Positions 23,994-61,794 of a stretch of DNA of 64,000 nucleotides are shown piece by piece. The notes below the pieces were generated by a model. The model was not told where the DNA came from, ran no database searches, and saw nothing but the letters and a program-made list of their open reading frames with translations. This DNA comes from Octopus vulgaris (Eukaryota): the NCBI GenBank assembly GCA_951406725.2, contig OX597823.1, forward strand, positions 104,656,001 through 104,720,000, in the 5' to 3' direction. The translations under genes and the position numbers were made by a program. Position 1 is the first letter of the stretch, and each line of letters opens with the position of its first letter.

Positions 23994-24329
23994 GTGACAG
24001 TCCCGTAAAGGGAATCACACCACCGCTATTTAGCCCTAGGAAGCATCGACGCTTCCTGACAGCTTTGACACATTTCTTGTGCCCTTATATTTGCGAAGGG
24101 GAGACAAGCACCCCCACCAGCTAGGCCTAGCAGGCCTTGCTACCCTAAACTGATGACGAGCAAGACCCAGAAACATGCATGTTTTCAGGTGTGAATCCTA
24201 GCTGGTGGGGGTGCTTGTCTCCCCCTTCGCAAATATAAGGGCACAGGAAATGTGTCAAAGCCGACAGGAAGTGTCGATGCTTCCTAGGGCTAAATAGTGG
24301 TGGTGTGATTCCCTTTATGGGACTGTCAC
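23994..24329. mobile_element. Foldback element with ~132-bp inverted arms (probably an inverted Penelope-like pseudo-LTR)
   Basis: 23994-24125 is the reverse complement of 24197-24329 with about six substitutions (three at CpG) and one 1-nt indel. The 71-nt spacer contains a hammerhead motif. Confidence 0.8.
24144..24189 (+). ncRNA. Minimal type I hammerhead ribozyme motif (degenerate)
   Basis: Stem I cctaaa/ttcagg (5 of 6 pairs); core CTGATGA at 24150-24156; stem II cgag-caaga-ccca (2 of 4 pairs, two C/A mismatches); GAAA at 24170-24173; palindromic CATGCATG stem III; GUU cleavage triplet. Confidence 0.6.
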
Positions 24330-26094: not shown

Positions 26095-26302
26095 TGATGT
26101 ATGCAGCACAAAGTTTTGTCAGTGAACAGGTCGCAGTCTCAAAGCGATGAAAATATTCTGACAAATTAAATTTAAATGTTGAAGTGAATCTAACGGTTTT
26201 TGTGTATTTCTTAAGTGGCTTATAAACACCTTCCACGCTGCAATTGTTTTCGTTCCAGCACACGATCTCAGATCAAGTCACTCGCTATGCAAGTACATCT
26301 CC
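26095..26302 (+). mobile_element. Short non-autonomous repeat (probable Penelope-like pseudo-LTR) carrying a variant hammerhead
   Basis: Shares about 150 bp with the rearranged copy at 58699-58879 and contains the hammerhead fold at 26115-26165. Confidence 0.65.
26115..26165 (+). ncRNA. Minimal hammerhead ribozyme variant with G3-C8 core
   Basis: Stem I TTTGTCA/TGACAAA (7 bp); core GTGAACA plus one extra G; stem II GTCGC/GCGAT; GAAA; palindromic A-ATAT-T stem III; UUC cleavage triplet (C at 26158). Confidence 0.65.
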
Positions 26303-39494: not shown

Positions 39495-39979
39495 GAGTGT
39501 GATCATTGACAGAGTGGCTAACCGGCTTCCGTGCCAGTGGCACTTAAAAGGCCACCATTCAAGTGTGATCATTACCAGCGTCACCTTACTGGCACTTGAG
39601 CCCCGTGCTAGTAGGGTATTAAGAGCACCATCCGAGCATGATCATTGCCAGAGTGGCTATCTGGCCTCCGTGCCGGTGGCACGTAAAAAACACCATTCGA
39701 GTGTGATTGTTACCAGCATCGCCTTACTGGCACCTGTGCCGGTGGCATGTGTAAAAGATTCGAGTGAGGTCATTGCCAGTACCGCTTGACTGGCCCCGTG
39801 CCGGCGGCATGTAAAAGTACCCACTACACTCTCGGAGTGGTTGGCGTTAGGAAGGGCATCCAGCTGTAGAAACTCTGCCAGATCAAGATTGAAGCCTGGT
39901 GCAGCCATCTGGTTCACCAGTCCTCAGTCAAATCGTCCAACCCATGCTAGCATGGAAAGCGGACGTTAAACGAGGATGA
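39495..39979 (+). mobile_element. RTE LINE 3' UTR with several tandem hairpin units and tail
   Basis: Repeated gtgccggtggcac...caccattcgagtgtgat units followed by the standard tail. Confidence 0.85.
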
Positions 39980-41084
39980 TTTGTTTTTCCACTTTTGTTT
40001 TGGTTGGACTTTTCTTTGTATTACAGTACCACACTACTTGTAATCATTTGTTCCCTTGTGAGGAGCAAATCCCTGAGCTTAGCTCTCACCACTTCTTTCT
40101 CTTCCGCAGGTTCCTTCACATGGCCCACTGGTCACTTCTTTATGCAACTGTCACCCTCATGCCCATATCAGCAAAGTCTTTTCTTAGCACACACCCAATT
40201 TCTCTTTGCTCAGCTCACCTGAGCTCCATGGTTCACATCCAGTGGAAGCATATTCACTTCAAAACTTTCTAGCATTCAATGTCCATATTTTACTGCAAGC
40301 AGAGATAACAACATTCAGAACATTTTCCATCCTGTTCTTACTCTGGATGCTATGCCCTTGGAACACCTTCCCACACAGCTAGTTTAGTTACCTGCATAAC
40401 AGAAGCTGTCACCTACCACTAAGAAGCATTTGATCACAATTCCATCCTTTCCTCATTCACCGCTACACCCATCTCTAATCACTTGTCCTTCCTGATTCTT
40501 TGTCCGTATTCTCTCTTATACTCACCCTATTGCACCTTGAAAATATGCTCACTCTCACCTAACTGACAGCACAGTTCTCACAAGTTATTCATCAACAACT
40601 AGTATCCTTAGTGGCCACCAAATTACACAGCATGATACTCTCATCAAAAGTCTTCTCCACAATGAATGCTAGGAATGGTGTGCTATTTGCCAAGAACTAC
40701 TGTAGTTATCTCACTATGAAAACAGCATCAGAGCTGTTTTCACTCAAAATGCATTTCATCTAAGTTAATTCTCTTCTTAATCAGCTGTGGTCTAACTTTC
40801 TGTAACCTTCATAACTTGGTTCATCAATTTGTAACCACTATAGTTGCTTCTACAGCATCCTCTTTGCCACTGTAGCAGTGATGGTGATACTGCTACATCA
40901 GGTATGGAAAATGATGGCTGACTATGCATACTGTATATTGCTCAATATTTTCAGCATCTCAGAAACTATCAATAATGATCAAACTGCTTCCCTAATACAC
41001 ACATACAAGTGCAGGCTTGGCTGAGAGATAAAGAAGTTTGCTTCTTAACCATATGGTTTTAAGTTCAGTCCTACATGTCCTCTT

Positions 41085-57359: not shown

Positions 57360-57806
57360 AAATCAAAATCAAACTCAGTGACTGGCATCCGTTGCTAGTG
57401 GAGTGTGAAGAGTACCATATGAGTGAGATCGTTGGCAGAGCAACAAGCTGGCCTTCATGCCGATGGCACGTTAAACACACCATTCAGGTGTGATCGTTAC
57501 CTGCGTCACCTTACTAGCACTTGTGCTGGTAGCACGTGAAAACATTCGAGTGAGGTCGTTGCCAGTGCAGGTGGCACATAAAAAGCACCATTTCAGTGTG
57601 ACCGTTGCCAGTACAACCAAACTGGCCCTTGTGTCAGTGGCATGTAAAAGCACCCACTACACTCTCGGAATGGTTGGTGTTAGGAAGGGCATCCAGCTGT
57701 AGAAACTGTGCCAGATCAGATTGGAGTCTGGTTCGCCAGACCTCAGTCAAATCATCCAACCCATGCTAGCAGGGAAAGCGGACGTTAAACGATGATGATG
57801 ATGATG
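57360..57806 (+). mobile_element. RTE LINE 3' UTR/tail
   Basis: Tandem UTR units plus tail ending in (gat)n. Confidence 0.85.
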
Positions 57807-58698
57807 AATATCAGGTCCTTTATATTCTATAGACATAGCTGTGTGTTGAGAAATCCACTTTGCAACCATAAAAGTTGACTGAAAAGTTCATAAAGTGACC
57901 AAGATACTTTCATGGAATGTGACCGAATGAAGCTTATTTATCAATAGTGCTCTCCACACACTAATTACATCAGTGTTACTGTGCTTAGATCTCATTGGTG
58001 AAGAAGCTTTCATTCTGTTGGTCAAAAAAAGTCATTAACAGTGGATATGACATTATCATCCTTGTGATACTGGTTCCTAGCCAAGTGTTTTTTTTTTTTA
58101 TATGTTGAGGAATAAATGATAGTCAGATAGAACCAGATCAGGAGAATAGGGACAGTGACCAACCAGTTCTAAGCCACAGCCATGCACAGCAGCCAATGAA
58201 AGCAAGGACTTCTGTGCTGGAGAATGGTCCTGATGAAACAAAACACCTTTCATCAGTTTTCCTGGTCATTTGGTCTTGATAGCCTTTCATAATTGCCTCA
58301 GCAAGTTGGCATTATATTCTCCATTGATGGTGCAGCCCTTTTGAAGATAGTCAATAAACACAAGACTTTTTGCCTCCCAAAAAACTGAGGCCATCACCTA
58401 ACCTGCAGATGAAATAATTTTGGCCTTCTTTGGAGCAGGGTGTTTGCTCTGCATGCATTGTCTCTTTGTCACTGGCTCAAAGTGATGGAGCCAACACTCA
58501 TCCTGGTTTAGGAAACACCTGAGGAAACCTACTGGATCTGTCTCAAACAACGTCAGGTCTTCCTGTGATGTAATCAGCTTAGTGCACTTTTGATAAGGTG
58601 TCAGAAGACATGGTGCCCACTGAGCAGAGAGAGGGAATGGCTTGTTCACCAAGCTGAGTTCATTGTGCAGAATATTCTCAACTCTCTTATGAGATGTG

Positions 58699-58879
58699 TT
58701 CAAACATTTAAATTTAATTTGTCAAAATATTTTCGTCGCTTTGAGACCGCGACCTGTTCACTGACAGAATTCCGTGCTGCATCTGACAAATTAAATTTAA
58801 ATGTTGAAGTGAATCTAACGGTTTTTGTGTGTTTCTTAAATGGCTTATAAACAAACACCTTCCATGCTGCAATTGTTTA
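58699..58879. mobile_element. Inverted/rearranged copy of the 26.1-kb repeat inserted in the mariner
   Basis: 58703-58782 is the reverse complement of ~26101-26180; 58784-58878 is a direct copy of ~26159-26249. Confidence 0.8.
58718..58768 (-). ncRNA. Minimal hammerhead ribozyme variant with G3-C8 core (second copy)
   Basis: Minus strand: TCTGTCA GTGAACA G GTCGC ggtctcaaa GCGAC GAAA ATAT T T TGACAAA. Stem II is perfect; the triplet is UUU. Confidence 0.62.
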
Positions 58880-59519
58880 TTAACTATTTGATTTATAGTC
58901 AATTGCCTGTCATCCATCACCCTGTGGTGAACATAATGTTTTCCTCAGTGGTTCCAGGTTGTTCAGACCTTTGGTCACCTTCAAGACTCACTTCCCCTTC
59001 TAAATTCAGCTTCCCACTTTTGCATGGTTGATAGAGCTGGAGTGTCATACCCTAATATAGCAACCATGTCAGCATGAATTTTGTTGGGGGATAAATCCTT
59101 TTTCTGCAGGTACTTGATTACACCATAATGTCAAATGTTGTCCATTTCCAAGAGAAGTCATAAATAGTTACTGACAACTACAGACTGTATTAGTTAGCTC
59201 CAGTTGTGAACCACTTCAGAAATACATAAAAAAATATATCTGAAATTGTGGAAGGGCCAACTTGGATTTTGCCAGTACATTCCAATGTACAAGGTTTGAC
59301 ATCAAAAGTTATGAATTCTGTAAGAGTGGGAATAGGTATGTGTATGCTTTATCATACACATTGGATTCACTACTGAATACGATGTGAATGAAGGTGGCTA
59401 AGGTGAGAAAGTTGCTTATACCTTGATTGAACCATTTTTAGGTAAAAAAAACTAAGTTATTCCTGGCCAGATTTTTCACTACTAGCCTTACCCAGGCCTT
59501 ATCTTTATTAGAAAAGAAA

Positions 59520-59593: not shown

Positions 59594-59899
59594 CATCTTT
59601 TTAAAGGTAATGTTCCAACATGGCCCTAGTCATTGGCTGAAACCTGTAAAAGACAATAAAAGAATATGTGTATTGGGCACTGTAAATAAATACTGGGTTG
59701 GCAGGCCAAGAGATGCTTCACAAAGTTACTGGGAGGGGGAAAATAACATCAAAGTATATCATTTCAAAGACAAAAGGAATATAACCATGCTAATCACAAT
59801 GTATGGTAACTGCTTTGATTTGGTGGGTGGAGCAGCTGAGGTCACAGGGGAATGCATTAGGAAACTTTGATGCTTTATAATTTATACTTATAATTTGCA

Positions 59900-60407
59900 A
59901 AGAGCACCATACGAGTGTGATTGTTGACAGAGTGGCTAACCGGCTTCTGTGCCAGTGGTACATAAAAGGGCACCATTCAAGTGTGATCGTTACCAGCACC
60001 GCCTAATTGGCACTTGTGCCTGTGCTAGTAGGGTGCCAAGAGCACCATCCGAGCATGATCGTTGCCAGAGCAGCCAACTGGCTTTCATACCAGTGGCACA
60101 TAAAAGGGCACCATTCGAGCGTGATTGTTACTAACATCGCCTTACTGGCACCTGTGCCGGTGGCATGTGTAAAAAGATTCGAGTGAGGTCATTGCCGGTA
60201 CTGCCTGACTGGTCCTCGTGCCAGTGGCATGTAAAAAGCACCCACTACACTCTCGGAGTAGTTGGCGTTAGGAAGGGCATCCAGCTGTAGAAACTGCCAG
60301 ATCACGATTGGAGCCTGGTGCAGCCATCTGGTTTGCCAGCCCCCAGTCAAAATCATCCAACCCATGCTAGCATGGAAAGCAGACGTTAAACGATGATGAT
60401 GATGATG
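59900..60407 (+). mobile_element. RTE LINE 3' UTR/tail
   Basis: Tandem UTR units plus (gat)n tail. Confidence 0.85.
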
Positions 60408-61794
60408 AATAGTTGTATAGTTGGTGTTGCTTTATGTAACAATGTTATTCTTGCATATCCAAGCAAAAAAAACAAACATTTAGAAGGGTTTTTTTTCCAT
60501 ATGCTTGATATCACACTCTGCAGTACTTCTGTTTCTTATATATATATACTTTCCTCTTTGAAATGATTTGCAAAATAACTGAAGAAAATCACAAGCAAAA
60601 TCTGTCTTCCTCCGGAGGTCATCGATCTGTAGAAAACCCCCCTGCATCTGGCAGAGAGGCATTTCCTTTTATCAGTACCTTCAACTGATTAAAAAAAACC
60701 CAAAAACAAAAACAAAAACAAAAAAAAACACGCCTCAACTAAAGGATGTAAAGTGTATTTAAAGAATGTTACATGGAGAGGAAGTTATTATTAATGTGTA
60801 GACTATTATGTGGGATTATATGTCAATCTATGTTTAAAAATATTTCACACACAAGTGTGGCACGTAAAAAGCACTAACTGATCATGGACGATGCTAGTAC
60901 CTGCTGACTGGCTCTTGTGCAGGTAGCACGTAAAAAGCACCATCTGAATGTGATCGATGCGAGACCCACCTGACTGGTTCCCGTGCCAGTGGCACGTAAA
61001 AAGCACCAACTACACTCGTGGCCATTTGCGCTGTTTCGGGGCCTACCTCTCGACGGCATCAATGTGCACTGATATGAGGCCCCACTTGCTAGATCAGCTG
61101 GTTATCGAATAAAGCTCAATATTCTTCTAACCATCGCTCATCGTCTCTTTTTAACCAAATCCAGTGGCTAGCCTTCTCCACTGTAGTTTGCTTTACGATG
61201 AGTTAGGCCTAACGATAACAACAGTTGTCTCATTAACTCTGTTACCTAAATAAACCATTACTTACTTAAGTTCTTCAATCCTTTTAGAGGAAAGTCCATC
61301 AATGACATTTTATCACTGTTCTCAACCTCTGGGCTGTCTTTAATGTATGGTCTTGTTGTTTTTGAATTCTTTGATATTTCTTCTCTAACTTGGATTTTTT
61401 TCTTTTTATGTAGTGCTGTCAACCCTTTTCAAACCCATTTTTATTCCTGGAAAGAAGTGGTTCATATTAGCCTGGCCTCTATCCTTTGACCTGTCCAGCA
61501 TGGTATAGCTCTTGGGGTCGCTGAGGGGTACAAGCTATGCATGCTGCAATAGAGACTTGCCTTTGTGGTGAAAGCACACTATGGCAGGAATTTAAATCAG
61601 AGTTCAAAGAGCAGGAACAGCTATCACAAGAAATCCTGTCTGATATTCTTACTGTTCTGCAAATCCAATATCCTGGATGGATACTTTTTTATTGAACACA
61701 GAAAGGATGAAAGGCAAAGTTGGTCTCAACAGAAATTCACAACAAATGACAAGAAACATTCTGTCTGATGTTCTTATGTATCTGCCAACCTGCT

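Follow-up and report, generated by a model that had tools for sequence, protein, structure and literature searches.

Penelope-like elements and related systems

The EN+ Penelope-like elements (PLEs) of the Neptune/Nematis type possess, according to their description (PMC8557442), a single ORF in which a reverse transcriptase (RT) is followed by a C-terminal GIY-YIG endonuclease with a CX2-5CxxC linker, together with hammerhead-bearing pseudo-LTRs, an inverted 5'-truncated copy, a tail at one end only and frequent TA-repeat targets. The family of Octopus vulgaris described here resembles them in all these respects, but differs by a tail of about 56 nt instead of 30-40, by a G3-C8 hammerhead core and by the occurrence of thousands of solo pseudo-LTRs. 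In Poseidon_Ac (PAc), from the green anole, two internal RT start sites located in the ORF start bound the tail, both strands are extended and the hammerhead lies near the ORF start, as in the octopus family; unlike in PAc, no part of the octopus hammerhead extends past the ATG, the entire motif being upstream of it, and the octopus evidence is genomic, with one site per arm (PMC11167929). In vitro, both strands are cut and extended by the lizard PLE, starting at two internal sites, and hammerhead cleavage is not needed (PMC11167929).

The minimal type I hammerheads of PLEs described in PMC4209133 share with the octopus motif a bulged base between positions 9 and 10.1, a G10.1-C11.1 pair, a palindromic stem III and dispersed solo copies. 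They differ by their core and by position 17, the octopus motif having G3-C8 and U17 while U3-A8 is the natural covariant there. The non-LTR retrozymes (10.64898/2026.07.22.740005) also consist of short hammerhead-bearing units derived from PLEs, but the octopus units are solo or head-to-head pseudo-LTRs with the exact ends of their parent, and form no tandem arrays. The role of the PLE hammerhead and the origin of the inverted pseudo-LTRs and tails are open questions (PMC8557442, PMC3846280, PMC11167929). In this respect, the octopus family represents a genome-scale test bed, with a natural G3-C8/C3-G8 pair in sister elements, even though the locus presented here offers no proof of cleavage.

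Architecture of the insertion

In the window, i.e., the whole stretch of 64,000 nucleotides that was analysed, a head-to-head insertion of 176 bp (58703..58878) is built from two arms of the ~205-bp pseudo-LTR and tail of a Penelope-like element, whose autonomous RT/GIY-YIG parent is present in the same genome. Element positions are numbered from the A of the 5' motif, position 1 corresponding to 26101 in the other window copy, a solo pseudo-LTR with its tail (26101..26302, plus strand, element 1-202) which carries the minority C17. The inverted arm (58703..58784, minus strand) extends from element 80 back to -1, with a complete 5' end, and spans the predicted hammerhead cut; its outer end, element 80, falls outside the two usual end sites of the family. 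The direct arm (58784..58878, plus strand) covers element 59-149, with its outer end at site A, the site without the tail, and contains at 58840..58878 (plus strand) the first codons of the parent ORF, with the ATG at element 115.

Both arms meet at 58783..58786 with a microhomology of 1-3 nt. With a 1-nt overlap the junction is placed at element 59-60, and it is ambiguous over element 59-62 (3-nt overlap) if the inverted arm is extended into the known upstream sequence of the element. The initial annotation had the direct segment open with a C at 58783/58784, at or near the cut. Its position holds, the direct arm beginning at 58784-58787, at the predicted cut or just past it, but the C at 58783 derives from the inverted arm, since N17 is a U in 84 of the 90 full-length copies. 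The 22-bp inverted repeat (left half 58703-58724, right half 58784..58805, plus strand) is exact and bounded by mismatches on both sides, as first described, and is nothing beyond the overlap of the two arms.

The insertion splits a decayed mariner-like relic (58400..59180, minus strand) recognized by an HTH_48 match with an E-value of 2.8e-4, below Pfam's cut-off. Comparison with 14 uninterrupted mariner-like copies indicates a loss of about 4 bp of the target, and no target-site duplication was seen against these copies. The initial description of an inverted and a direct segment inside a mariner relic, as a Penelope-like insertion with an inverted partial pseudo-LTR, is thus borne out by the mapped arms and by the autonomous parent: the insert is an ordinary PLE inversion, real and correctly described.

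The parent element and its sister family

An upstream extension of the module, seen in a few loci, has 579 exact matches in the genome and led to long RT + GIY-YIG copies that terminate in the same ~205-bp module. At one locus (L358) a module-ORF-module arrangement is accompanied by an inverted module, and the module continues straight into the ORF. The reading frame beginning at the module's ATG shares 39% identity with the N-terminal part of the 1312-aa ORF of a sister family; the predicted cut lies 56 nt upstream of this ATG, and the hammerhead is entirely 5' of it. Because the long copies carry the module and the module runs into the ORF, the ~205-bp unit is identified as the pseudo-LTR and tail, a terminal module belonging to an autonomous element with RT and GIY-YIG.

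In the ORFs of three long loci (L359, L328, L329), GIY-YIG scores above the Pfam cut-off, and a motif scan recognized YVDD and DKS, as well as a CX3CX2C linker and a CCHH-like motif in the endonuclease; the Pfam search of these three ORFs returned no RT family match. The features expected from an EN+ Penelope-like element were all found, namely RT YxDD and DKG-like motifs joined in one ORF by GIY-YIG at the C terminus, a pseudo-LTR overlapping the ORF start in direct and inverted copies (L358), and an optional tail at one end only, as reflected by 154 of 216 arm pairs using both end sites and five a single one. Judged by the definition in PMC8557442, these motifs would fit the Neptune/Nematis type, either clade.

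The sister family, which shows 58% identity over the RT region and contains 1312-aa ORFs, is young, with intact ORFs of this size and near-identical copies (L363-L369, L383, L384; e.g., L363:1772-5701).

Other readings of the short unit were abandoned. A MITE, suggested by a 6-bp terminal inverted match, was dropped after the parent ORF was found. A non-LTR retrozyme implies tandem monomers, but the copies examined are solo, head-to-head or joined to the long element; one direct pair occurred among the 30 loci of one examined set. An HDV-like ribozyme as the maker of the sharp 5' end, judged by eye, was discarded with P1 and P3 unpaired.

Some loci deserve separate mention. In the parent element, the microsatellite-rich 3' UTR is framed by the two halves of an 11-bp inverted repeat (L328:5005-5755), and a Tc1-like transposase ORF, recognized by eye, adjoins a PLE insertion (L328:6237-6956). 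At L295:1-800, the 3' end of a different GIY-YIG PLE is joined to the same UTR and module, as a nested insertion or a chimera. Three pseudo-LTR copies spaced by about 2.6 kb occur within a tandem duplication, without ORF, at L326:1878-7321.

The hammerhead motif and its G3-C8 core

The motif (58718..58768, minus strand) resembles a minimal type I hammerhead, with stems, core, bulged G, GAAA and U17. Stem I is formed by 58768-58762 and 58724-58718, and stem II by 58753-58749 and 58739-58735, with one bulged G between the core and stem II; the GAAA occupies 58734-58731, stem III is palindromic and N17 is a U at 58725. Within core positions 3-9 (G3..A9; 58755..58761, minus strand), G3 and C8 replace C3 and G8. 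The predicted cleavage bond, after U17 (58724..58725, minus strand) and intact in the inverted arm, separates element 58 from element 59, a position assigned by the established hammerhead numbering.

Upon folding, stems I and II form (MFE -12.9 kcal/mol, z -1.7). Among the 90 full-length copies, G3 is found in 85 and C8 in 84, the pair being retained but flipped versus the canonical one, and the cleavage triplet U-U-U, which agrees with NUH, in 84. The canonical C3/G8 core of type I hammerheads is lacking, and an Rfam scan of the window yielded no hammerhead family at E<=1. Four of the 12 pairs are changed on both sides, with 98.6% of the cells paired; none of 500 shuffles reaches four double-changed pairs, and slid controls reach one at most. 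All four double-sided changes stem from the sister family, where one stem I pair is broken. The sister motif lies in an unshifted register and has C3-G8, while each of stems I, II and III shows paired changes, because of which the reality of the hammerhead fold, and of G3-C8 as a natural variant, is well supported. The whole G3-C8 hammerhead announced on the minus strand by the initial annotation is thereby upheld across families. It probably represents a ribozyme of the dimer type, conserved and perhaps slow, and insertion would not depend on its cutting.

A natural U3-A8 covariant has been reported for hammerheads (PMC3088659; PMC4209133), the engineered C3G/G8C exchange restores part of the activity in vitro (PMC11167929), and a G3-C8 variant performs worse with C17 (PMC3884650). 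The U17 of the octopus family may fit this poorer function of G3-C8 with C17. A natural G3-C8 hammerhead in a PLE was not found in the literature searched; Lunse et al. and the supplements of PMC4209133 and PMC8557442 may describe variants.

The sister hammerhead, besides its C3-G8, has core position 9 occupied by a C, and one subfamily carries C17. A third hammerhead family, with U3-A8, a palindromic stem III and C17, was noticed at L372:5139-5186, in three copies within the locus.

End sites of the arms and nature of the template

The arms end at two fixed sites, 149 (site A) and about 205 (site B), both inside the ORF start. Of 216 head-to-head pairs, selected through their inner junctions, 154 combine an arm that terminates within 141-152 with a partner that terminates at 196 or farther on, five have both arms ending at the same site and 57 have an off-site end, a few loci contributing two rows (one-arm-per-site pattern, Fisher P 4e-38). 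The sister family displays 21 A+B pairs out of 33, with one same-site pair, at homologous codon positions. In the twin priming of L1, two primers provided by two DNA ends similarly create a head-to-head junction with microhomology, and the arms abut; unlike in L1, the second priming site of the octopus element is fixed and the arms overlap, mostly by 40-170 nt. Each DNA end seems to use a different start site, which would extend the two-site result obtained in vitro (PMC11167929). This strict rule would tie the two start sites seen in vitro to the two DNA ends; it was found stated nowhere in the literature searched.

The two arms share non-CpG alleles in 18/20, 16/19, 75/91 and 92/104 comparisons versus 11.6, 10.4, 56.6 and 76.9 expected, respectively, with position 97 biased by the choice of the anchor; at CpG sites, sharing shows no excess over chance. 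Many arm pairs, not all, share one template or source: the discordance between arms (16/91 at position 61) exceeds what a single RNA behind each insertion would allow.

In the 5'-complete arms, where neither the partner arm nor the known upstream sequence supplies a G, G represents 33 of the 46 non-C bases at -2, and -3/-4 are unconserved. Read-through copies have a C at -2 in 579 cases and another base in 307, of which the 100 listed comprise 97 T, 2 G and 1 A. A single untemplated G has been taken as a cap signature for L1 (PMC6425141). By analogy, the additional G with which the sense 5' end begins makes it likely that the template is a capped sense RNA starting at -1 and uncut. A splice acceptor is resembled by the -2/-1/0 boundary as well, which means that the cap reading is not unique, and a comparable boundary is known in the Penelope of D. 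virilis (PMC4209133; PMC2377424). Just 5' of the module, a branch-point-like, pyrimidine-rich, YAG-ending tract (L328:5745-5765; 579 + 307 genome matches) may correspond to a splice acceptor or an initiator. In four contig sets presumed to be RNA, the element is covered and several head-to-head joints occur, among them one that shares the type of the window copy, at a resolution below that of RNA ends.

Junctions around the predicted cut

The initial annotation considered the window junction as a fossil of in vivo cleavage, and proposed as a check that breakpoints should peak sharply at UH|UGACAAA across copies. Junctions between a 5'-complete arm and a cut-back arm were counted genome-wide by gapped patterns. 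Their starts number 231 in about 6-36 (30 loci examined in detail), 66 + 53 in a pair of windows that overlap each other and surround the cut (102 unique junctions in 37-84, all rows examined), and 75 in about 78-108 (30 loci examined in detail). Leaving the window copy aside, 6 of the 84 junctions starting in 42-84 are compatible with element 59, and 5 of 83 after removal of one locus (L185) where upstream read-through sequence accounts for the junction.

Measured against microhomology-weighted, detection-matched nulls, position 59 receives 3/22 junctions versus 1.4 expected (P 0.17), 3/30 versus 1.7 (P 0.23) and 5/21 versus 2.4 (P 0.087). A pooled test (5/49 versus 1.6 expected, P 0.023) was set aside, the zone being seen by two anchors and the double detection ignored. 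Under all nulls of the own family, position 59 holds roughly twice the expected number of junctions. Positions 55-57 and 66 reach equal values, and the largest local cluster (17 of 102 junctions) lies at 37-41, on 2-4-nt microhomology. Inner junctions spread along the element and favour short microhomology; the 3-nt overlap of the window junction is reused at 80-83 in another locus (L230).

A second design, accepting any breakpoint, gave 410 matches, of which the best 100 were listed; 14 with visible small indels were skipped and 85 parsed. Among the matches listed, one of the 66 general 5' breakpoints in 44-84 falls at 59, five fall at 58-60 versus 4.8 if uniform, and none of 13 simple truncations is located at 59. 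The sharp peak at the cut is absent in both designs: starts are scattered, and 59 is not singled out. Moreover, the inverted arm of the window copy reads through the cut, so that the template of that arm was uncut.

In the sister family (158 matches, best 100 listed, rows 1-78 examined), 6 of the 37 clean inverted junctions among the matches listed cover the cut versus 3.4 expected (P 0.12), a figure reaching 11/54 versus 5.0 (P 0.009) by a rough null with the inclusion of 17 by-eye junctions, 5 of them covering the cut. All six tool-called cut-covering junctions use T-run microhomology, and six further junctions start 3-5 nt upstream of the cut. Counts are raised over -3 to +5 around the cut, and leftmost starts at -5..-1 amount to 9 versus 4.1 expected (P 0.017, in a bin picked after looking). 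Such a pattern would be expected from cleavage and equally from a pause at the fold. A small, about twofold excess at the cut may exist (P 0.009-0.23, depending on the family and the null).

Origin of the junction

The window junction is best explained by two cDNAs, each primed from a different end of a single DNA break, that were connected through short microhomology, and it likely meets the cut by chance; a probability of about 0.78 is assigned to this reading. Transcription would start at the A at -1, and the capped RNA would be bound uncut. Both DNA ends would prime reverse transcription at internal sites, one of them at 149 and its counterpart at 205. Of the resulting cDNAs, one would often reach the cap and gain the G and the second would halt at a variable position, after which their 3' ends would be joined. 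Internal priming near the 5' end of the transcript could also directly yield the many ~205-bp solo copies. Speaking against this scheme are the about twofold excess at 59 together with the sister figures, the allele discordance between arms, the acceptor-like 5' boundary, and the outer end at element 80, which breaks the two-site rule; in the window copy, the inverted arm probably either underwent a later loss of 81-205 or had an off-site priming point. With breakpoints spread, the inverted arm spanning the cut and microhomology explaining the join, the claim of a cleavage fossil is not sustained, and the coincidence of junction and cut is probably due to chance, aided by the short microhomology. 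The cap-like G argues in addition for an uncut sense template.

A structure-dependent pause, in which the RT stalls upon entering stem I or stem III of the folded, uncut RNA and leaves a broad hump of junctions without any cleavage, is an unlikely alternative. It agrees with the counts raised at 55-59 and 65-71 in the own family and over the cut region of the sister, with the excess of sister starts at -5..-1 in its post hoc bin, and with the paucity of junctions at the 3' strand of stem II and the GAAA; but the region is AT-rich and palindromic, which favours the use of microhomology, and the counts are small.

It is also rather improbable that the hammerhead cuts some templates before or during integration, so that about 5-10% of the truncated arms stop at the cut; the window copy may then be one of these, with its other arm copied beforehand or on another RNA molecule that had stayed uncut. 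The junction interval of the window copy includes 59, the roughly twofold excess occurs in both families and is stronger in the C3-G8 sister, the fold is conserved across families, and both protein-assisted cleavage and the partial C3G/G8C rescue are known in vitro (PMC11167929). These arguments are countered by the lack of any significant single detection-matched test in the own family and of any excess among the general breakpoints in the matches listed. The six tool-called sister junctions rest on T-run microhomology, with six more located 3-5 nt upstream, the P of 0.009 includes 17 by-eye rows under a rough null, and RNA-seq of the lizard element gave no reads ending at the cut (PMC11167929). 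In its general form, this idea would have Penelope hammerheads cut in vivo in the middle of integration, one capped RNA being primed at two fixed sites and about one insertion in ten being cut before the second cDNA passes, leaving a junction excess clearer in the C3-G8 sister than in the G3-C8 family; such a course of events seems doubtful.

Self-priming on an antisense template, according to the model in PMC3846280, would account for the head-to-head geometry and for some fold-back junctions at palindromic tracts, and would leave the sense hammerhead without a role, but it is very improbable, as the extra sense 5' G and the one-arm-per-site pattern are more in line with a sense template that carries a cap and is primed from the two DNA ends.

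Additional features of the window

Besides the two pseudo-LTR copies, an abundant dispersed repeat ending in GAT repeats is represented by more than 10 copies, at 57393-57810, 59896-60416, 39495-39980 and other positions. A long imperfect palindrome with an 83% self-match extends over 23994-24329.
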